Source: a virus
UHGV virus genome: UHGV-0236227
Reading direction: 5' to 3' (one strand)
Length of the DNA: 30,354 bases
Of this stretch, positions 4,755-29,945 are shown piece after piece. Within the stretch, counting starts at the first letter, position 1, and every line of letters starts with the position of its first letter. Made by a program: the position numbers and the translations under genes. Under the pieces are notes generated by a model. The model did not search any database. It had not been told where the DNA came from and worked only from the letters and a program-made list of their open reading frames with translations.

Positions 4755-5747
4755 TTACACCACGCGGGCTTCTGTTTCCAGAAGCGCATCAGTTTCACGG
4801 ATTGGTACACCACGGAATGAAGTCCACCACTCGCCTTCTGTCTCTTTTACGCTGATCGCCAGAGATGTTTTCTCCAGAGATTGCAGATCAAGAGCCTGTC
4901 CTACAGTGCGGTTCATGTAGAACACCGGGCGACCCATGCCACGATTTGGAATGCGATGCAGTGCTTTAACCATCAACTTCGCAATATTTGCGGCAGAGGA
5001 AGGTTCTGAAAGATTGCTGACATCGATGTTTGCAATGCGAACAACATAACGCCAGTCACGCAGAGCAAGTCCGTTGTCCCATTTGTAATGGGTACGGTAG
5101 CCTTCGTACTTGCCGCCATTAGCATCTTCCAGTGTCACCTGGCCTTTATCTTCCATCTGAATGCCAGCCTTCTGCCCTTTCGGGAAGATGCCATGCACGG
5201 TGTTTTCGCCCCACACCACTAACCAGATTGAGGTGTTATCTGTACCCGTGCCACCAGCATCAATGATGTTCTGAGCATTACCTGCAGACAGGCTGGAATA
5301 GCGGGAGGACAGTCCCATAAACTGCTGAGGGTTAACGCTGGAATCACCATAAAACAGCGTCTGCGCCATCTGCTGATTCATCGCTTCAATAAATGCGCGG
5401 TCTTCAGACAGGCGGAATTCGGCGGTATTGCCGTTCAGATCAGCCAGTGACTTATCGACTTCAGCATAGGTTTCCAGCATGCCAACGGAATCGGTTACCT
5501 GCACTGTGGTTGATTTGCTTGGCTGTACGCCATAGTTCAGCAAACGCCAGGTAGCTGAAGGTAAACCAGAACGAATGGTGGTTCGGTGTCCGGTAGGAAG
5601 GTTCCCTTCGACAAAAGGCATATCCTGAAGGATCGGGTTAGTTTGACCGAGAAGCTCGATAATCTTATCGACTTTCCCGTTTGGATCGACGCGCTTACCC
5701 CAGTCAGCCAGCGTTAGCGCAGTTAAGCCTTTAACAGCCATTGTCAT
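4755..5747 (-). CDS. Major capsid protein
   Basis: 330-aa ORF directly after the scaffold gene in portal-scaffold-capsid order; AGAGGA Shine-Dalgarno. Start may be ATG 5747 or 5741. Confidence 0.75.
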   Translation of the reverse strand: MTMAVKGLTALTLADWGKRVDPNGKVDKIIELLGQTNPILQDMPFVEGNLPTGHRTTIRSGLPSATWRLLNYGVQPSKSTTVQVTDSVGMLETYAEVDKSLADLNGNTAEFRLSEDRAFIEAMNQQMAQTLFYGDSSVNPQQFMGLSSRYSSLSAGNAQNIIDAGGTGTDNTSIWLVVWGENTVHGIFPKGQKAGIQMEDKGQVTLEDANGGKYEGYRTHYKWDNGLALRDWRYVVRIANIDVSNLSEPSSAANIAKLMVKALHRIPNRGMGRPVFYMNRTVGQALDLQSLEKTSLAISVKETEGEWWTSFRGVPIRETDALLETEARVV

Positions 5748-6457: not shown

Positions 6458-6750
6458 TCCTGTTCACTGGCCTCTTTGGCCATCTTCAAATACTGTTCAG
6501 GGCAATGCGCCATAACGCGCTGAAACAGTTCCAGCGCCAGATTGCGTTGCCCCTCATTAAATGCCATTGCCATAGCGTCCATCGGTGAGATAGCGGAAAA
6601 CACACGGCCTTTCTCCAGCACCGACCAGACAACGCGACGCCCCTGTTCACTGCTCATGACAAAGCGAATGTCATCAATTTCACGCTGCGCCATGTCACGT
6701 TGCTTACGGGCGTTTTCTTCTTTCAGTTGTTCGTCTTCGTAATCTGTCAT
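6454..6750 (-). CDS. Hypothetical head-assembly protein
   Basis: 98-aa ORF, ATGA-coupled to the portal stop and to the scaffold start. Confidence 0.55.
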   Translation of the reverse strand: MTDYEDEQLKEENARKQRDMAQREIDDIRFVMSSEQGRRVVWSVLEKGRVFSAISPMDAMAMAFNEGQRNLALELFQRVMAHCPEQYLKMAKEASEQE

Positions 6751-8426
6751 TGTGATTGCCCACCCTGACCACTAACTGCATTCGCCATAGCTGACAAAAC
6801 ACTCGGATCCGAAGTTTTAGCTTCGCTTAGCGTCTTGGCACCCTGTGCCGCCGCCATCCCCATCGCCATCATTTGTTGCTGCTGTTGCTGCTGTGCCCGT
6901 TGCTGGCGAGCCTGCTCAACCTGTTCCTGCGGAACAATGACGGTTGGAGACACTCCGGACATATCAGCGAATGCATCGATCGCTTGATCAACGTTGAGTT
7001 TGTCGAGAGCTTCTGGTTTCGCTTGCGCAAGTTGACCAATGAAGTTAACCGTGGACGCCAGACTGGACAGGCCGATAGACTTCTGCGCCTGAGCCATGAC
7101 GGAAATGTATTCGACCTTCAGGGGCATGCCTTCCATCGCGTCAGGCGGTGGCGGCAGCATGTTTTTACGCACCATCATCGAGAAAGCGCGGTCAATGAGA
7201 GGATTAAGACATTCGTCGTTCAGACGCTCCAGAACCGGCCCCAACATCAGAAGTTTTTCTTCTTTCATTTCGATCACCGCTTCAACAGGCATCGAGCGGG
7301 TATTGATGTTCTGCAACATCATGAACAGATCGACAAAGTAGGCGCTGTTAATGATTTGACGAGTGTCCTGAATGTCTGCCACCAAATCTGCTGTACTGGG
7401 GTTAACCAGATAAGCAGGCCTGAAGCCATCCTGACCAGTAATCTGATCGATATACGTGATGTCGCCAGGAAGAAGGGAGGCGCGCTGATTCTTGAGGGAA
7501 GTCGGAGCAACCATCGGCGGATTGGTGGCTTTATCAATCAACTGCGACTTGCGCTTCTGAAGAAGCTGCAATGCCTTAACAGATCCAAGCGCCAGCATAC
7601 CCGGGCATGATGATCCATAAACATCTTCGCCGTTAACTTCCCAGCGCGGAGCCATAATTGGAAACTCATCGAATCCGGACTCACGCAACAACTTGTCGTT
7701 ATCGCCACCAACCTCGTAATAAACCGATTTGAATGGCTTGTTCTTGCTATCCAGCTTCGATGTATCGCGGTCAATGTTCGGGTAAACCGAATGCATCACT
7801 TCAATCCACTTCTCGTAGGTGCCGCTTTCCCACATGCTTTTTACGGATTCGCTGACGTTATTTAGCCCGAACTCCTGAACAAGCTGACGAACAGTCATAG
7901 AGAACTTGCGGAAACAGGTGTCCACACTGCCACGAGGTGAGTTAGCCAGGTAGTAACTGCCTATCGGGAATGGCATTGTGCGAATGATGTCCTCGTCATC
8001 CTCCAGCACCGCCATTGCACCAGTGCTGTATGTGCCGAGGCTTCCGTATAACTGCGGAAGAGACTGGTAGAGATTCGACTTATTGAACATATCGTTCATG
8101 CGGTTCTGCACCGCCTCAAGCCACAACTTAACAGGGCCATAATCCATCATTTCAGGATCTGGCGTAGCCAGGCGAAACCACGGACGCGCGGGGCTTGTGA
8201 TGCCTGACATCATGCCGCTGGCGAGAGTGCGCGCCGCCATAGTCCCGGTCGAATCAATAATGCGTGTATTGCGTCGATCGTTACGGTTGACCTCAGAAGT
8301 CAGAAAGCGGGAACCACGCGGGTTGATGTAATCACTCAACTCGCGCCAGTGCGGCTCGAACGACTGACGCTCGCTTTCAAGTTGTGCGAACTGTTTGTTC
8401 AATCGCTCTTTAGTTGTTTCCGCCAT
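6747..8426 (-). CDS. Portal (head-to-tail connector) protein, T7 gp8-like
   Basis: 559-aa ORF; GGAG Shine-Dalgarno 8 nt upstream of ATG 8426; size and position typical of podovirus portals; Gln-rich C-terminal tail. Confidence 0.85.
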   Translation of the reverse strand: MAETTKERLNKQFAQLESERQSFEPHWRELSDYINPRGSRFLTSEVNRNDRRNTRIIDSTGTMAARTLASGMMSGITSPARPWFRLATPDPEMMDYGPVKLWLEAVQNRMNDMFNKSNLYQSLPQLYGSLGTYSTGAMAVLEDDEDIIRTMPFPIGSYYLANSPRGSVDTCFRKFSMTVRQLVQEFGLNNVSESVKSMWESGTYEKWIEVMHSVYPNIDRDTSKLDSKNKPFKSVYYEVGGDNDKLLRESGFDEFPIMAPRWEVNGEDVYGSSCPGMLALGSVKALQLLQKRKSQLIDKATNPPMVAPTSLKNQRASLLPGDITYIDQITGQDGFRPAYLVNPSTADLVADIQDTRQIINSAYFVDLFMMLQNINTRSMPVEAVIEMKEEKLLMLGPVLERLNDECLNPLIDRAFSMMVRKNMLPPPPDAMEGMPLKVEYISVMAQAQKSIGLSSLASTVNFIGQLAQAKPEALDKLNVDQAIDAFADMSGVSPTVIVPQEQVEQARQQRAQQQQQQQMMAMGMAAAQGAKTLSEAKTSDPSVLSAMANAVSGQGGQSQ

Positions 8427-8440
8427 TTCAATGACTCCGG

Positions 8441-8647
8441 TTACTGACCAAGCAGCGTTTTACCGCTGGTATTAGCGGTTGATGTGTCGCCCTGAGAACC
8501 GGTAAGCAGCGTAGAACTACGACCAGCAGCAGCGCGACGGCGACGAGTTTCTTCGTCGCGGGCATCAACAACGGCGGCATCCTGCTCCTGTGGTGCTGCC
8601 TGAACTTCTGGTGTTGCAGGCACTGATGGTGAGCTACCCATGCACAT
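8441..8647 (-). CDS. Small hypothetical protein upstream of portal
   Basis: 68-aa ORF whose RBS context (GGAGTCATTGAT-ATG) is nearly identical to the portal RBS (GGAGTCATTGAA-ATG); low-complexity sequence. Confidence 0.35.
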   Translation of the reverse strand: MCMGSSPSVPATPEVQAAPQEQDAAVVDARDEETRRRRAAAGRSSTLLTGSQGDTSTANTSGKTLLGQ

Positions 8648-8715
8648 ATCAATGACTCCGTACGCAATTAAATTATTACCAATTTAACCACATATGATTT
8701 ATTTATCGTAGATAG

Positions 8716-8744
8716 TTGACATTTAACGCACTAATTATTACCTT
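8716..8744 (+). promoter_or_regulatory. Candidate promoter (TTGACA -35) overlapping a TTACC-N5-GGTAA palindrome, pointing toward the tRNA
   Basis: TTGACA at 8716..8721; the -10 element is not clean (TAATTA/TACCTT candidates). Confidence 0.35.
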
Positions 8745-8752
8745 TCAGGTAA
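8738..8752. promoter_or_regulatory. TTACC-N5-GGTAA palindrome (putative operator)
   Basis: TTACCTTTCAGGTAA; identical 15-mer recurs at 29281..29295. Confidence 0.45.
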
Positions 8753-9074
8753 GCAAAGAGTTCATTCCGGTTATTAACCTGACTGGCTTGTCGTTAAATT
8801 GAACAGGTGGGGTGAGCTTTTATTTTGAGCAGTACGGTGTATGGCACATGCGCCGATAGCGGTCTGGATACGTTTAAGGGGCACCCTCCCTTGCTCGGGC
8901 AAACGAACCAGGTAGCCGGAATGTGCAAGTCGAGCGGTTTTATTCCGCGCACGGGGATTCACCATCCCGGCGATTCGGTGTGACGCCTCGGAAGAGACGA
9001 GGGTACAACGATGAGAGCATTTATGGAGCCGCGACAAAGTGTGGTGCCTTAACAGGCTAAGTGCTCTCAGCGTT

Positions 9075-9151
9075 GTGGCATTAGCTCAGTTGGACAGAGC
9101 AACCGCCTTCTAAGCGGTTGGTCGCAGGTTCGAATCCTGCATGCCACGCCA
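9075..9151 (+). tRNA. tRNA-Arg (anticodon UCU), phage-encoded
   Basis: 77-nt cloverleaf folded by hand: 7-bp acceptor stem GTGGCAT/ATGCCAC, D-arm GCTC-AGTTGGACA-GAGC, anticodon stem ACCGC/GCGGT with loop CTTCTAA, T-arm GCAGG-TTCGAAT-CCTGC, encoded CCA end. Confidence 0.9.
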
Positions 9152-9194
9152 GAATCACGCCTAAGGACCGTGATGCCAGAAGTTCCAGGGGCTT

Positions 9195-9236
9195 GGCGGT
9201 GATGGTTTCCCTTGAAGGACTATCACCGCCCTTTTT
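9195..9236 (+). terminator. Intrinsic terminator after the tRNA
   Basis: 9-bp stem GGCGGTGAT/ATCACCGCC with an 18-nt loop, followed by CTTTTT. Confidence 0.55.
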
Positions 9237-9314
9237 ACAGCAGGACGCCATTGCGATGGCTTCATGCTGTAAACCAGTACAGCCACGGAAGGCATAACTC
9301 ATTGCTTCCAGTTC

Positions 9315-9339
9315 GCCCGGTTCGCCGGGCATTTTTTTA
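9315..9339 (+). terminator. Intrinsic terminator immediately upstream of the 118-aa ORF RBS
   Basis: GCCCGG-ttcg-CCGGGC hairpin followed by a run of 7 T. Confidence 0.55.
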
Positions 9340-9349
9340 AGGTGAGATT

Positions 9350-9706
9350 ATGAACGACCAGCAAATCGAAAAAGAAATCGCTGAGAAAGGCAAAACGGCA
9401 CCGCGAGTTACGCCCCAATATATCGAAAGCATCATTCTTGAAGAGCATTTCTTTACTGCTTATGACGGCATTCGTGCTGCCAATATGGGCGTTGGCGATT
9501 CATGGACAGCGCATAAATCTACAGACCTCCTGACTTTCTGCGTACTGGTGCTGAAGAATGGCTTCACCGTCACCGGAGAGAGCGCCTGTGCAAGCCCGGA
9601 AAACTTTGATGCAGAAATTGGTCGGAAGATTGCCCGGCAGAATGCTGTAAACAAAATCTGGATGCTTGAAGGTTACTTGCTGAAGCAGAAGTTAAGCGAG
9701 CAATAA
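9350..9706 (+). CDS. Small phage accessory protein (Gp49-like, tentative)
   Basis: 118-aa ORF with AGGTGA Shine-Dalgarno; opposite strand to flanking terminase and portal; family assignment is from recalled motifs only. Confidence 0.55.
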   Translation: MNDQQIEKEIAEKGKTAPRVTPQYIESIILEEHFFTAYDGIRAANMGVGDSWTAHKSTDLLTFCVLVLKNGFTVTGESACASPENFDAEIGRKIARQNAVNKIWMLEGYLLKQKLSEQ

Positions 9707-9710
9707 CACC

Positions 9711-9722
9711 GTGACATGTCAC
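9711..9722. repeat. Perfect 12-bp palindrome GTGACATGTCAC (copy 1), preceded by ATAACACC
   Basis: Read directly; second copy at 12165..12176 with the same ATAACACC context. Confidence 0.6.
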
Positions 9723-9726
9723 AAAC

Positions 9727-9753
9727 AGCCAGCCTATGAGCTGGCTTTGTTTT
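9727..9753 (+). terminator. Intrinsic terminator after the 118-aa ORF
   Basis: AGCCAGC-N6-GCTGGCT hairpin followed by TTGTTTT. Confidence 0.55.
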
Positions 9754-9796
9754 ATCCTCACCAGAGGATATCAACGACATTATCCCCACCAGCGGA

Positions 9797-11272
9797 TTAA
9801 GCATAGGGATCGTAATCTGTAATGGCCTTGCCTTGCTGGTTCTGCTGACCTGGAATTCGCAGACGCTTCGACACAGGGAAAGCAAACGTCAGCAATAGCG
9901 CATCGCCTTTACCCGGCGAACGCCCAAGACGCTCTTTGATATCTTCCTTCGGTTCGATAACGATTTTACCGTCCACACGAACTTTGTACTCTGCCGCCGA
10001 CAGGTCGTCTGCAGTTTCCTGGTCATCCAGCATGCCGCCCAGCCTCAGCCATGTCTTACATGAGTTGAACATCTCCCCACGCTTGTTAAGCATCTGCGGG
10101 TCAGTGGACGCACCGCCGAACGGAACAAGTTGCCATGTACGTCCCCAGCCATCACCGATTGACTTCAGACCGGTTCCGTAACCGAAGTCGATGAACACCG
10201 CGTCAGCCTGGTACTGGTCTTCAAAGTCAGCGATACGCTTCGCCATAATCAGATCGTCGGTGGTCTTGTTGCCGGTCCACAGCACCTTACTGTGCAGCCC
10301 CTGCCGCAGGTATATCACCGCGTCATCAACGCCTGAATATGCCGGGTCAACACCGATTATCACCGGAGCATGTGCAACCTGCGCAGCGGTTACCACCCGT
10401 TTCATTGCCTCGTCAGTAAGACCGGTAGGGATAAACTGCAATTCAGATGCATCAGGGAATATGCCACGCACACGGATTTTAACGAAGTCGCTATCTTCCC
10501 CGTAGTCATCAACCCATTTCTGCAACTGCTGTTTGTTGGTGCCTTCCACCGTCCTGCTGTCAATCTGCGCAGTTTTCCAGCGGTGTTTGTATTTGCGGAA
10601 ACATTCACGGAAACGCCCGGTGTTACGTGTAGGGTTTCCGAAAGCCACCCAGATAATCTCAGTGTCTTCGTCCGTTAGCGCACCCTCGGCAACTTCCCAC
10701 ACCAGATCCGCAATGTTCGACGCTTCATCAAATACCACGATGATGCGTTTACGCTCGTTGTGTAGTCCGGCGAATGCCTCAGTGTTGTGCTCAGACCAGG
10801 GGATTGCGTCAGCTCGCCACCGCTTGTCGTGCCCAGGGTCATTGCTGTACATCGCGGTAGCGGTACAGGTAAACCAGTCTTTCGTGATAGCAAGGTTTGA
10901 CCACTTGATAATTTCCGGCCAGGTCTTCGTTCGTAGCTGGTTGTCGGTGTTGGCGGTCACCACGACCTTACAATCCTCGCAAGTGGACATGCCCCAGTTG
11001 GTCAGCATTGAGATGAATGCGGATTTACCAATACCGTGACCAGAAGCACGTGCCAGCATAAGCGGCTGATATCGCGTCTCTGGATTCTGCAGGTGATCAC
11101 GTATCTCTCGGAACGCATCAGCCTGCCACTGACGTGGGCCGGTGGCATGTGCCAGTTCAGTCCCCTCTTCCCCCCATGGGAACGCATAGAGGGCATAGCC
11201 AAGCGGATCGTGAGTGAACCCTGCAATATCCTCGATTAACTGCTCTTCAGGAGATAACGCTGTATCTGTCAC
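9797..11272 (-). CDS. Terminase large subunit
   Basis: 491-aa ORF with Walker A-like ASGHGIGKS, Walker B-like IIVVFDEAS and a C-terminal acidic nuclease-like segment (VIIGVDPAYSG); ATGA coupling to the terS-like gene. Confidence 0.9.
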   Translation of the reverse strand: MTDTALSPEEQLIEDIAGFTHDPLGYALYAFPWGEEGTELAHATGPRQWQADAFREIRDHLQNPETRYQPLMLARASGHGIGKSAFISMLTNWGMSTCEDCKVVVTANTDNQLRTKTWPEIIKWSNLAITKDWFTCTATAMYSNDPGHDKRWRADAIPWSEHNTEAFAGLHNERKRIIVVFDEASNIADLVWEVAEGALTDEDTEIIWVAFGNPTRNTGRFRECFRKYKHRWKTAQIDSRTVEGTNKQQLQKWVDDYGEDSDFVKIRVRGIFPDASELQFIPTGLTDEAMKRVVTAAQVAHAPVIIGVDPAYSGVDDAVIYLRQGLHSKVLWTGNKTTDDLIMAKRIADFEDQYQADAVFIDFGYGTGLKSIGDGWGRTWQLVPFGGASTDPQMLNKRGEMFNSCKTWLRLGGMLDDQETADDLSAAEYKVRVDGKIVIEPKEDIKERLGRSPGKGDALLLTFAFPVSKRLRIPGQQNQQGKAITDYDPYA

Positions 11273-11868
11273 TGATTGCCATCCTGACGTTCTTTCAGTC
11301 TCTTCCTGGCTGCCGCTATGCGATCAGCAATTGTCACATTCACATTAACATCCAGGCGTTCTTTGAATGCGTTGACGTCGACGTGCTTACCAATCAGTTC
11401 GAGGTTCTTCACCTTGTCAGGCCATTTAATTTTTTTGAGGATGCCAACCAGCTCTTTCTCGTCTCCACGGCCTTCGAACATGTCGGCCAGTTCGAAACCT
11501 GTCAGGTACTGCCGCCAGACCTTAGGCCATTCCGAGACCGGCTTGATGCTCATATCGTCGTTGAGAATGTCAATCACGTCCATCTGGTCGATCTCCACCA
11601 GGCGCATGAGAACGTAATCAGCACTGACGCGCATTCGTTTGTTGCGCTCCTCCATCAACTCGGCAATCCGTTTTTGAATGCGTTCATCGCGCATCATGAC
11701 ACTGGCTTTAACTGCCGCTGTATTTGGGGAGAATCCTGCGTTAATCGCAGCCTGAGTCTGGTTTTCAGGCGTTTGGATGTATGACTGGCAATAAGCCTCC
11801 TGCATTGCTGTTAGTGGCTTAAATTGCGTTGATTTGCGTTTATAGGTTTTAGGTTCAGCAGGCATCAT
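11269..11868 (-). CDS. Terminase small subunit
   Basis: Directly upstream of and coupled to terL; conserved-looking core. Start uncertain: likely the internal ATG pair at 11868/11865 rather than the track start at 11946. Confidence 0.7.
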   Translation of the reverse strand: MMPAEPKTYKRKSTQFKPLTAMQEAYCQSYIQTPENQTQAAINAGFSPNTAAVKASVMMRDERIQKRIAELMEERNKRMRVSADYVLMRLVEIDQMDVIDILNDDMSIKPVSEWPKVWRQYLTGFELADMFEGRGDEKELVGILKKIKWPDKVKNLELIGKHVDVNAFKERLDVNVNVTIADRIAAARKRLKERQDGNQ

Positions 11869-11876
11869 AACCACCG

Positions 11877-11907
11877 TGGTAATAGTTACCGTTGTGGTAA
11901 TAGTACC
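11877..11907. repeat. Tandem copies of GTGGTAATAGT(T)ACC, each an inverted GGTAA...TTACC unit, just upstream of terS
   Basis: Two direct repeats 17 bp apart (11877..11890 and 11894..11907), between a terminator hairpin and the terS start codon. Confidence 0.45.
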
Positions 11908-11909
11908 AT

Positions 11910-11937
11910 GCAAAATAAAGCCGCCATAGTTGGCGGC
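11910..11937 (-). terminator. Intrinsic terminator upstream of the packaging and structural operon
   Basis: GCCGCCA-tagt-TGGCGGC hairpin followed on the minus strand by TTTATTTTG. Confidence 0.55.
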
Positions 11938-11942
11938 AGTAT

Positions 11943-12176
11943 TCAAAGTCCATCAAATTCATCGTAAAAACTCTCGTCAAGATACCCTTCCCATTTACCG
12001 CGAATGAAAATTACATCCTCGCCGCAAGGGTGCTGACTGTCGATAACTATATCCCTCCTGGCGCAACCATACTTATGCATGAGAAATTTAACCTCTTTCG
12101 GAAAATTTGCTGAGTTATCTCTCATATCTTCAAGGTCGTAGCGTATTTTTGGCATAACACCTTCGTGACATGTCAC
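11943..12176 (-). CDS. Hypothetical protein
   Basis: 77-aa ORF; start ambiguous (GTG at 12176 or ATG at 12155). Confidence 0.4.
   Translation of the reverse strand: MTCHEGVMPKIRYDLEDMRDNSANFPKEVKFLMHKYGCARRDIVIDSQHPCGEDVIFIRGKWEGYLDESFYDEFDGL
12165..12176. repeat. Perfect 12-bp palindrome GTGACATGTCAC (copy 2)
   Basis: Identical to 9711..9722, including the upstream ATAACACC. Confidence 0.6.
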
Positions 12177-14352: not shown

Positions 14353-14961
14353 TCATGCCGATCTATTTTTCATCAGTGATTCATAAAACTTTTGCCACTT
14401 ATGCCGACCGAAATTAGCCTTCGAGTTACAGCTCGAACAAAGGCAAATAAGGTTCTCCTGACGACAGTCTTGCTTGTCGTAATTGATGTGATGAGTTGTT
14501 AGCCTTTTGTCTGTTCCATCACAACCTGGGTTCTGACAAGTAAAACCATCTCGCTCAATAACCCTCTTGCTCGTTTCTCGGAAATCCCACGGATACGGCA
14601 ATCTCGATAATCCACCAGACCAGTTTGGATTTCCTTCCCCCTTCATCAGAGAAGAACGCATTATGTTGGAACACTGTTTCGAGCAGCATTTATGACGCTT
14701 CTCATGACTCAAGAAAACGGAGAACGAAGATCCGCATACGCAGCATATTTTTAATACTCGCTTTAGTTCCCGATTTACCGTCTTGCCTCGCTGTGAAATT
14801 CCTACACACTGAAGTGAGCAGAACCTTGAAGATGAGTTGGCTCGCTTAACCTGATATTGCCTGCCACATACGGAACAAACCTTTTCGATTTTCCCACCCT
14901 TCCAATTCGGGTTTTTATCACCGGATACAATCAATCCCGCAGCATTGGGCTTCTCGCTCAT
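14353..14961 (-). CDS. HNH endonuclease
   Basis: 202-aa ORF with duplicated NPNW-GG...C-x-C-G modules and an HNH-type motif (HHINYDKQD...NLICLCSSCN). Confidence 0.7.
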   Translation of the reverse strand: MSEKPNAAGLIVSGDKNPNWKGGKIEKVCSVCGRQYQVKRANSSSRFCSLQCVGISQRGKTVNRELKRVLKICCVCGSSFSVFLSHEKRHKCCSKQCSNIMRSSLMKGEGNPNWSGGLSRLPYPWDFRETSKRVIERDGFTCQNPGCDGTDKRLTTHHINYDKQDCRQENLICLCSSCNSKANFGRHKWQKFYESLMKNRSA

Positions 14962-15314: not shown

Positions 15315-15329
15315 TTACCCCTGAGGTAA
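15315..15329. promoter_or_regulatory. TTACC-N5-GGTAA palindrome (putative operator)
   Basis: TTACCCCTGAGGTAA; overlaps the RBS region of the downstream minus-strand gene. Confidence 0.45.
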
Positions 15330-17343: not shown

Positions 17344-17574
17344 TCATGAGTAGAAGAAGTATGCCAGTTCTGCTTTTGAGCGCAGCCATTGTCTTGTTTT
17401 ACAGGCTTTAAAAAGCCCATTCATCAATACTTTACCTGGCATTTTGCGCTTACCTGTTAAGTGAGTCTGGATATAGTGACTCGTCGTTCCGGCTTCCTGT
17501 GCGAAGGCTTCACGCTCATCCGGAGTAAGTGCAAGCCAGTGCTTTTTGAAATCGAAATGTCCGTTATCGCTCAT
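17344..17574 (-). CDS. Cro-like HTH regulator (YdaS-like)
   Basis: 76-aa ORF divergent from the repressor-like gene; HTH-like segment (FAQEAGTTSHYIQTHLTGKR). Confidence 0.6.
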   Translation of the reverse strand: MSDNGHFDFKKHWLALTPDEREAFAQEAGTTSHYIQTHLTGKRKMPGKVLMNGLFKACKTRQWLRSKAELAYFFYS

Positions 17575-17728: not shown

Positions 17729-18313
17729 ATGAAAAGTATCCAGGACGTCCGCAGGCAAAATCTCAACGACTTGATCGACCGTGAATTCAATGGTGTTCAG
17801 ACGCGGATGGCAGAAAAACTTGGAACTCAGGCAAATCTGGTAAACCGCTGGGCTCTTGGCAAGAAGGTTATCGGCGACCAGGTTGCACGAAAAATTGAAG
17901 CTGCCGCCAATAAACCCCGTAACTGGCTTGATATTGATCGTTCGCTTTCTCAGGAGGGTTTTCAGCCTGTCGGCCCGAGCGATATAGGTCAGTTGGCGGC
18001 TCACAACCTGGAACGCTGGATGAGCGAAAGCCGCGACCTTTCAACACAGGGAAAACTTCACCGCGCATCCGGCGTCGCCCAGGTGACAATCAGCCGCCTG
18101 TTAAACAATGAGGTCAGCGTTTCCATTTCCACTCTGGAGAATGTTGCATCCGCATTCGGGCGTCACGGATATGAACTACTGATTCACCCGCACGACCCTG
18201 CGACTATCAACTATGACCGCTCACGCTACGCATTGTTACCCGAAACCGAGAAAGCAAAGATCGAAAGTTACATTGAATTTGTCATCAACCAGAACGAAAA
18301 AAGCAAACAATAA
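17729..18313 (+). CDS. CI-like repressor candidate with two HTH-like segments and no recognisable S24 peptidase domain
   Basis: 194-aa ORF divergent from Cro-like gene; two XRE-type HTH-like segments; no Ser-Lys peptidase motifs recognised. Confidence 0.55.
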   Translation: MKSIQDVRRQNLNDLIDREFNGVQTRMAEKLGTQANLVNRWALGKKVIGDQVARKIEAAANKPRNWLDIDRSLSQEGFQPVGPSDIGQLAAHNLERWMSESRDLSTQGKLHRASGVAQVTISRLLNNEVSVSISTLENVASAFGRHGYELLIHPHDPATINYDRSRYALLPETEKAKIESYIEFVINQNEKSKQ

Positions 18314-23686: not shown

Positions 23687-23701
23687 ATACCTTTAAGGTA
23701 A
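23687..23701. promoter_or_regulatory. ATACC-N5-GGTAA palindrome (putative operator) upstream of int
   Basis: ATACCTTTAAGGTAA, 43 bp upstream of the integrase start. Confidence 0.4.
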
Positions 23702-29280: not shown

Positions 29281-29295
29281 TTACCTTTCAGGTAA
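29281..29295. promoter_or_regulatory. TTACC-N5-GGTAA palindrome (putative operator) in the divergent tailspike / small-ORF region
   Basis: TTACCTTTCAGGTAA, identical to the site at 8738..8752. Confidence 0.45.
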
Positions 29296-29661: not shown

Positions 29662-29676
29662 TTACCTTTGCGGTAA
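29662..29676. promoter_or_regulatory. TTACC-N5-GGTAA palindrome (putative operator)
   Basis: TTACCTTTGCGGTAA, 32 bp after the small-ORF stop. Confidence 0.45.
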
Positions 29677-29711: not shown

Positions 29712-29789
29712 GGCACTGGCAAAATCCAGTGCCGGGATTGGCGTCCCGGGTTACTAAGTGGCGCATACCACGCCAGACGTGGTTTTTTT
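29712..29789 (+). terminator. Structured RNA region: two GC hairpins, then an intrinsic terminator (29768..29789)
   Basis: GGCACTGG-N6-CCAGTGCC (29712..29733), CCGGGA-N6-TCCCGG (29732..29749), CCACG-N5-CGTGG plus 7 T (29768..29789). Confidence 0.5.
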
Positions 29790-29945
29790 ATGCGTTAAGC
29801 ACAGCTATATCCGAATTATGGTGGGCTGGGCAGGGGTCCGAAAGGACGCCGGTACCACTTAGGCCGGTACGCCAACCTTGTCCAGTTCACCACCAGTAAT
29901 TGGCGTTGCGGTGGTGATTAAAATCACTAAGTGGAGATAACCACC

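Follow-up and report, generated by a model that had tools for sequence, protein, structure and literature searches.

Introduction

The putL and putR sites of phage HK022 are cis-acting antiterminator RNAs that bind RNA polymerase at its beta-prime zinc-binding domain. The put RNA is about 70 nt long and folds into two stem-loops, and putL lies just downstream of PL (PMC9378689). Lambdoid phages that lack N may use RNA-based antitermination (PMC12315714). Here we describe a leader RNA in a 30,354-nt stretch of viral DNA (UHGV virus genome UHGV-0236227; hereafter, the window), which is a phiV10/epsilon15-like (Uetakevirus) prophage. Positions 8829-9078 of the window, in the gap between terL (terminase large subunit) and the portal-side genes and on the strand opposite to them, encode a pseudoknotted structured RNA of about 250 nt, and the region holds an apparently undescribed, very common phage RNA family. 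From sequence comparison we tentatively infer, at somewhat less than an even chance, that this RNA acts on the polymerase transcribing it and thereby enables read-through of two terminators (T1 and T2) to a small cargo gene.

The RNA shares several properties with HK022 put. It lies directly downstream of the repressor-controlled PL in lambdoid phages without an annotated N (as in mEp460 and Stx2a_WGPS2) and, in the lambdoid locus L044, of an HK022-like PL, and in the window it is likewise downstream of an operator-bearing promoter. Terminators follow in both systems, both are confined to enterobacterial phages, and no phage protein partner is evident. Unlike put, the leader RNA is about 170-250 nt long with two pseudoknots, is present as a single copy with none on the PR side, and occurs also in P1 and in epsilon15-like podoviruses. 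Homology to put was rejected: our covariance model of the RNA (R1) scored at best only 4.3 bits in the PL/put region of HK022, there is no sequence similarity, and the sizes and folds differ.

Structure of the leader RNA

The RNA comprises a core and a 3' domain (Table 1). In the core, the loop of hairpin P1 is invariant, helix P2 encloses the variable P3, and a near-invariant 19-mer, GGTAGCCGGAATGTGCAAG, occupies 8911-8929. The P4 loop forms a pseudoknot with GGUGUGA, and P5 reads CCUCG-GAAGAGA-CGAGG. The fold, modelled as four helices and two pseudoknots, was evaluated on an alignment (A3) of 41 representatives retained after clustering at 90% identity. Across 31 tested pairs, 97.5% of the alignment cells were paired, against 24-47% when the 3' partners were slid; compensatory changes were seen in 12 of these pairs, and none of 500 shuffles reached the observed covariation. 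Pseudoknot 2 covaries (CACC/GGUG to AACC/GGUU), and the 3' domain shows compensatory variants of one of its closing helices (GAGAGCA/UGCUCUC, AAGAGCA/UGCUCUU, GAGCGCA/UGCGCUC and AAGCGCA/UGCGCUU). The RNA strand is the plus strand, because the frequent conserved G-U pairs fit that strand only. Model R1 matched the window once (8829-9009, 141 bits; next best 6.8 bits) and thus indicated no second copy there, for instance at the main early promoters.

Homology with the lambdoid copies stops at 9078. Upstream of the core is a 5' extension that, in some relatives, resembles the closing helix of the 3' domain. The first-pass annotation had noted a leader of 300 bp at this place. The leader is present, at about 325 nt from the predicted transcription start to the tRNA; treating it as a plain leader or spacer missed that it is the most conserved and most widespread part of the locus, a structured RNA common to lambdoid phages and P1.

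No Rfam 15 family matched 8829-9078 at gathering thresholds, and in a permissive search of 8400-10000 nothing apart from the tRNA overlapped this interval at E-values up to 10; a plastid hit of that search scored below threshold and was dismissed as chance. Neither a 16-mer of the RNA nor the RNA itself (in connection with put-like elements, the P1 ban operon and epsilon15) was found in the searchable literature, and an earlier description is possible.

Some features of the RNA recall the lambda nut site and the rrn leader, with which it shares a promoter-proximal position. The purine-rich P5 loop GAAGAGA resembles GAAGA, the loop of nutL boxB, and the 3' motif UGCUCU(C/U) resembles boxA. Unlike nut, however, the leader RNA is much larger and more complex, neither of two lambdoid records examined (mEp460 and Stx2a_WGPS2) has an annotated N gene close by, and the boxA-like string lies in a covarying helix, although a true boxA is recognized as a single strand. 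On account of this pairing the 3' motif was not read as boxA, and the RNA was not classed as a nut site; the nut/boxA resemblance is a lead. In two copies of the lambdoid type (L086 and L043) the usual 3' domain is replaced by canonical boxA-like strings, TGCTCTTTAACAA and GCTCTTTAAAAA, just 3' of the core, which hints at an involvement of Nus factors.

The loops of P3 (8881-8892) and T1 (9207-9216) share a pyrimidine motif, UCC(C)UU(G/A), which the homologous loops of relatives also carry; in several relatives it reads UCCUUA, like the 3' end of 16S rRNA.

Distribution and genomic contexts

To a 250-nt query there were 2474 matches in 1840 of 5426 complete E. coli genomes. Plasmids carried 554 of these matches, and the plasmid copies are presumably P1-like because 90-110-kb records and P1-type coverage occur among the matches listed. 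Among the matches listed (25 RefSeq entries), an adjoining tRNA-Arg and one hypothetical protein were the sole annotations. A scan of GTDB, with one genome per species and a different motif (the 5' hairpin), returned 21 loci, 20 of them from Enterobacterales and one on a 1.7-kb contig labelled Bacillota. All 21 were full-length matches to R1 (128-172 bits), and 20 contained the exact 19-mer.

Many lambdoid phages, including mEp460, cdtI, 2H10, Ayreon and Stx2c- and Stx2a-converting phages, carry about 245 nt of unannotated DNA that matches 8834-9078 at ~83% identity. In mEp460, cI is followed by a terminator, a promoter flanked by two OL operators matching OR, and the RNA some 35-40 nt after the likely transcription start, then by a T1 homologue, a further hairpin and an 11-gene early-left operon; the record has no annotated N gene and only a Q-like protein. 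In Stx2a_WGPS2, whose record likewise has no annotated N, the order is cI, the RNA and an operon of ~4.5 kb reaching to xis and int. The PL/OL region of L044 is identical to that of HK022 at 30 of 33 positions (cI 54% identical), and the RNA occupies the position of HK022 putL.

The first ~165 nt of the RNA also match P1, P7, D6, SJ46 and RCS47. In these P1-like phages, 14 nt separate tRNA-Ile(CAU) from the RNA and ~100 nt separate the RNA from ban downstream; the copy is within the C1-controlled ban operon and lacks T1. In P1 itself it is located between trnI and ban. The ban operon of P1 (L005, 269-370 and 826-2486) runs from a dicF-like region through three tRNAs and the RNA to ban, so that its leader is made largely of RNA genes. 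The layout shared across contexts is an early promoter, the RNA, at least one terminator, and genes.

A conserved early unit in epsilon15-like phages

The 1.6 kb around the locus are 93-98% identical to phiV10, O157 typing phages 9 and 10, ZX5 and others. The gap (8648-9796) measures 1149 bp, in agreement with the ~1.15 kb of opposite-strand sequence of the first-pass annotation, and the promoter and operator, tRNA, tandem terminators, small open reading frame (ORF) and third terminator listed there were all recovered at or near their given positions. Its placement at the terminase-portal junction was inexact, since a 68-aa gene, and not the portal gene, borders the gap; the portal-side flank comprising both (6747-8647) contains a phrog_831 match.

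To compare gaps we collected loci with the invariant 19-mer from IMG/VR and phage records that also had homologues of TerL and of gp3 or the portal protein. This gave 27 distinct gap sequences of 744-1691 bp. All 27 had the promoter and leader RNA at the same place and in the same orientation, and nearly all had T1 and T2. The slot after T2 contained a PF13876 protein, a Tad2-like protein, another protein or none, with at least seven different cargo proteins overall. Because the leader is fixed in all variants while the tRNA and cargo vary, the ancestral unit is, by this comparison, the promoter, leader RNA, T1, T2, cargo slot and third terminator (T3), with the tRNA and ORF as passengers. The region is an early transcription unit, ancestral in epsilon15/phiV10-like phages and antisense to packaging and head genes. 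The first-pass view of an insert splitting an adjacent terminase-portal pair is thus largely wrong, as this is the conserved order of the whole group.

Epsilon15 has lost the RNA core and any tRNA and keeps the promoter, T2 and ORF; only the first ~50 nt of the RNA remain (L002, 2808-2916; 42.8 bits). The deletion arose between copies of a 13-nt repeat, TTCCCTTGATGCT, of which the first sits in the P3 loop and the second in that of T1 (compared with L065 at 4815-4835 and 5178-5200).

Table 1 Positions, strands and supporting evidence of the features of the locus and its flanking genes in the window
Feature	Position	Strand	Basis
Sigma-70-like promoter	8716-8744	+	-35 TTGACA 8716-8721, 17-nt spacer, -10 TACCTT 8739-8744
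Operator palindrome TTACCTTTCAGGTAA	8738-8752		overlaps -10; member of repressor operator set
Leader 5' extension, partly conserved within epsilon15-like phages	8753-8828	+	alignment A1
RNA core: P1, P2 enclosing P3, 19-mer, variable hairpin, P4, P5	8829-9009	+	alignment A3, model R1
RNA 3' domain, variable insert closed by ACAAC/GUUGU and GAGAGCA/UGCUCUC	9010-9078	+	covariation, homology limit
tRNA-Arg, anticodon UCU, reads AGA, CCA encoded	9075-9151	+	ARAGORN; Rfam RF00005
Small conserved hairpin AUCACG-CCUAAGGAC-CGUGAU, after tRNA	9154-9174	+	sequence reading
T1 terminator, GGCGGUGAUGG...CUAUCACCGCC then CUUUUUAC	9195-9238	+	terminator scan, fold
Inter-terminator segment, two hairpins, conserved with epsilon15	9239-9314	+	alignment A1, fold
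T2 terminator, GCCCGG-UUCG-CCGGGC, then A and U7	9315-9338	+	terminator scan, fold
Ribosome-binding site AAGGTGAG	9339-9346	+	
118-aa ORF, N4 gp49 / Sf6 gp66 family	9350-9706	+	PF13876 Phage_gp49_66
T3 terminator, hairpin on both strands, between ORF and terL end	9727-9746		terminator scan, fold
terL, terminase large subunit, flank	9797-11272	-	phrog_2, 2.9e-52; phiV10 annotation
terS	11269-11946	-	PF03592
68-aa gp3-like gene, flank, precedes portal	8441-8647	-	phiV10 and epsilon15 annotation
Portal gene, flank	6747-8426	-	PF12236, 4e-188
Major capsid gene	4755-5747	-	

Promoter and repressor operator

A sequence scan found no consensus promoter on the portal side. The promoter in Table 1 has a perfect -35, and it was not called by the consensus scan because its -10 matches consensus at only three of six positions; the same layout of -35, spacer and -10 is present in epsilon15 and other relatives. 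The predicted transcription start is at ~8751-8753. The palindrome overlapping the -10 follows the pattern TTACC-N5-GGTAA, for which the whole window has 18 matches (both strands counted) against 0.63 expected, and this bears out the palindrome that the first-pass annotation had noted. One site (17659) is between a cro-like gene (17344-17574, minus strand) and the repressor gene (17729-18313, plus strand), two (18371 and 18433) directly follow the repressor gene, and further sites are at 23687, 29281 and 29662, the 15-mer at 29281 being identical to the palindrome at 8738. In the epsilon15 record, the homologous place is annotated as a 'repressor' binding site. The palindrome is thus an operator of the phage repressor. 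Because this operator is shared with the repressor set, the unit would be expected to stay off in the lysogen and to be switched on early upon induction or infection, and the overlap of operator and promoter argues for repression of the cassette in the lysogen.

Two other groups of sites were observed in the window. Operator-like sites at 15315 and 15377 lie within the long minus-strand operon, just upstream of an HNH endonuclease gene (14353-14961, minus strand) that is a few genes upstream of terS. Near 29 kb, isrK RNA (29713-29789, plus strand; 67.7 bits in Rfam) is found beside C4 antisense RNA (29814-29897, plus strand; 66 bits), each preceded by a repressor-operator copy (29281-29295 and 29662-29676). 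This region looks like a P1-type c4/ant immunity module in an epsilon15-like prophage.

Terminators and cargo

The two tandem terminators and the third one recognized in the first pass were found with hairpins at 9195-9230, 9315-9330 and 9727-9746. The T1 hairpin has a 14-bp stem (-22.8 kcal/mol) followed by CUUUUU, and its loop includes UCCCUUG. Of 40 epsilon15-like contexts, 36 have a homologous T1 with a covarying stem, of the form GGCGG...CCGCC then CUUUUUAC, downstream of the RNA; among 72 other contexts, a strict pattern that misses the common mEp460 type recovered it in at least 11. T1 thus belongs to the same mobile module as the leader RNA. In the segment between T1 and T2, a RyhB-like match scored 18 bits against a threshold of 55 and was rejected as chance. 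T2 is immediately 5' of the ribosome-binding site and is kept ahead of differing cargo genes in relatives. The GG of AAGGTGAG lies 11 nt after the T2 stem, as had been remarked, and the statement that the ORF needs terminator read-through stands, with T1 and T2 both preceding it. T3 is annotated in phiV10 as a rho-independent terminator after terL, on the terL strand.

The protein search proposed for the 118-aa ORF gave PF13876 over the full domain (1.6e-34, 118.7 bits against a gathering score of 27, profile positions 1-82 of 82). The ORF also matched phrog_322, a family of unknown function (1.3e-62), and PADLOC returned no match for it. Elsewhere in the group, Tad2-like (Thoeris anti-defence 2, PF11195) proteins of 98 and 173 aa occupy the slot in L091, L102 and L080, and other cargo includes a 140-200-aa protein and a 200-300-aa coiled-coil membrane-type protein. 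In L080, the sequence N-terminal to the Tad2-like domain looks by eye like the PF13876 region; Pfam gave no PF13876 match for this protein at E <= 0.001. Taken with the Tad2-like neighbours in the slot, this resemblance is only a hint of an anti-defence role for the PF13876 ORF.

With its gene content varying between collinear relatives and transcription signals bounding it, the locus has the make-up of an accessory cassette. Like phage morons, it holds variable cargo between terminators, on the strand opposite to its neighbours, that is swapped among close relatives and includes Tad2-like genes. Unlike morons, it has an operator-bearing promoter, so that the cargo should be silent in the lysogen and expressed once the phage is induced or infects a cell, and a conserved structured leader RNA and terminators precede the cargo gene.

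The tRNA-Arg passenger

The tRNA-Arg(UCU) proposed in the first pass was called by ARAGORN (anticodon tct) and by Rfam (73.3 bits against a gathering score of 29 for RF00005). Its first four bases, GTGG, are the last four of the leader RNA, and only some members of the epsilon15-like group carry it. Counted over 35 genes of the window, the frequency per 1000 codons is 7.45 for AGA and 4.97 for AGG; AGA usage in E. coli K-12 is roughly 2 per 1000. By this figure AGA lies above the host level, which makes AGA supplementation by the tRNA plausible. AGA codons number 15 in the tail spike gene, 8 in an O-like replication gene and none in the 118-aa ORF. As a passenger, the tRNA would be freed by RNase P and 3' processing and would supply AGA decoding; a role against tRNA-cleaving defences is speculation.

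The hairpin that follows the tRNA (9154-9174) is kept in L065, a locus without a tRNA. The corresponding slot of L065 (5023-5115) is ~90 nt long and begins with GGCATTA and ends with ATGCC, like acceptor arms. ARAGORN called no tRNA in this interval, which may be a decayed or replaced tRNA.

The species 1 and 2 RNAs of phage T4 are stable RNAs co-transcribed with phage tRNA clusters. The leader RNA similarly abuts tRNA genes (14 nt apart in P1-like phages, with the 4-nt overlap in phiV10-like phages), and its release by tRNA processing is expected on this ground. It differs from them in that most copies (lambdoid and many epsilon15-like) have no adjacent tRNA, and there is no sequence relation.

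Possible roles of the leader RNA

Under the antitermination proposal, the RNA would fold while emerging from the polymerase and would act in cis, either on this polymerase or on elongation factors of the host, so that only transcripts from the repressor-controlled promoter would run past T1 and T2 into the cargo gene. Lambdoid phages without N would use the same mechanism for their early-left operon, and it would work in the manner of HK022 put, but by an unrelated and larger RNA. We propose engagement of a host machine because of the put-like position, the carriers without N, and unpaired nucleotides that are almost invariant across unrelated proteomes within one host order; conservation in P1, lambdoid and epsilon15-like phages, whose proteomes are unrelated, points to a probable host partner. 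Several observations weigh against this proposal. In epsilon15-like phages, only antisense terL lies beyond the cargo; L065 and L101 keep the RNA without a credible cargo gene, and epsilon15 keeps its promoter, T2 and ORF without the RNA core. The P1 copy, which follows tRNA genes and lacks T1, is 2.3 kb away from Pban. Each genome has a single RNA copy, with none on the PR side, and no similarity to put was found in sequence or by model. Crude terminator counts showed no clear enrichment downstream of the RNA (1.03 per kb sense vs 1.55 antisense in one home-made scan, 0.74 downstream vs 0.68 upstream in another); both scans missed known hairpins, and for this reason we rely on the homologous T1 instead. 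In addition, a module with its own strong terminator would equally fit a stand-alone RNA gene.

Such a non-coding RNA gene, spanning promoter to T1 (~480 nt with the tRNA here, ~470 nt in mEp460) and acting in trans early after infection or induction, is the main rival explanation, though a rather unlikely one in our judgement. The RNA might serve as a sponge or decoy that occupies a host protein or a defence sensor, or its UCC(C)UU loops might act on Shine-Dalgarno-like sequences, with downstream genes expressed by leak-through only. It would account for the movement of the RNA and T1 as one module, for the retention of promoter, RNA and terminators in L065 and L101, and for the presence of the motif in both the P3 and T1 loops; flanking tRNAs in phiV10-like and P1-like phages would free discrete species by tRNA processing, and the slot, with its Tad2-like cargo, is a hot spot for anti-defence and accessory genes. 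It sits poorly, however, with the lambdoid phages, in which the early-left operon including xis and int lies behind T1 and efficient passage is needed, and with the P1 copies directly before ban without T1, and no target or partner is known. A sensor leader, in which the RNA would bind a small molecule or host factor reporting the state of the cell, decide termination at T1 and gate the accessory or early-left genes, appears improbable. The 5' leader position, the complex pseudoknotted fold, the near-invariant unpaired stretches and the conserved terminator that follows are what such an attenuator would have, but the spacing of core and T1 varies between ~100 and over 400 nt, with room for an entire tRNA, which makes direct alternative pairing unlikely; P1 copies have no T1, and no riboswitch family in Rfam matched.

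A recent moron-type insertion of a tRNA and small ORF between the terminase and portal genes, with the leader as mere spacer, is contradicted by the comparative data, and we give it very little credence. The tRNA and ORF are indeed variable passengers, the GTGG overlap is of the kind left at an illegitimate junction, and AGA usage in the window exceeds the E. coli level, but the promoter and RNA are in every gap variant and T1 and T2 in nearly all, and the leader is the best-conserved part and is common to unrelated phages. Least credible of all is a minus-strand protein encoded over the leader, either an 87-aa ORF at 8774-9037 or PhiV10p04 at 9081-9332. Open frames are present, and phiV10, mEp460 (gp37) and BUCT709 annotate hypothetical proteins there. 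A coding function of the leader on either strand was rejected: only 50 of 288 gap runs in the alignment had lengths divisible by three, there was no clear three-base periodicity of substitutions, and five of the 41 representatives had no open frame across the RNA core. Substitutions are moreover compensatory for RNA pairs, PhiV10p04 overlaps the tRNA in antisense, and there were no Pfam matches. Hypothetical proteins called across the tRNA or RNA (9081-9332 and 8774-9037 on the minus strand of the window, L003 2443-2811, which is mEp460 gp37, and L007 1823-2113) are most likely spurious calls due to the G+C-rich RNA.

Significance

About one-third of complete E. coli genomes carry this large, well-conserved structured RNA, for which Rfam has no family, and ORFs that are most likely spurious have been called across it in several phage records. 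The terL-portal gap of epsilon15-like phages merits description as a regulated early accessory locus and not as junk or hypothetical ORFs. Antitermination by the leader RNA would offer a concrete candidate answer to how the cargo ORF is reached by read-through. It is possible, although we would not call it probable, that the RNA founds a new class of processive-antitermination RNA, unrelated to HK022 put in sequence and fold, that controls early transcription in many enterobacterial temperate phages, namely lambdoid phages without N including Stx2-converting phages, P1-like phage-plasmids and epsilon15-like podoviruses. Were the RNA instead to act in trans, it would be among the first products after induction, beside anti-defence cargo, which would also be new. 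If antitermination is its role, this could explain how lambdoid phages without N, Stx2-converting ones among them, transcribe their long early-left operon through terminators, and E. coli RNA polymerase would have a second reprogramming RNA, structurally distinct from the first.

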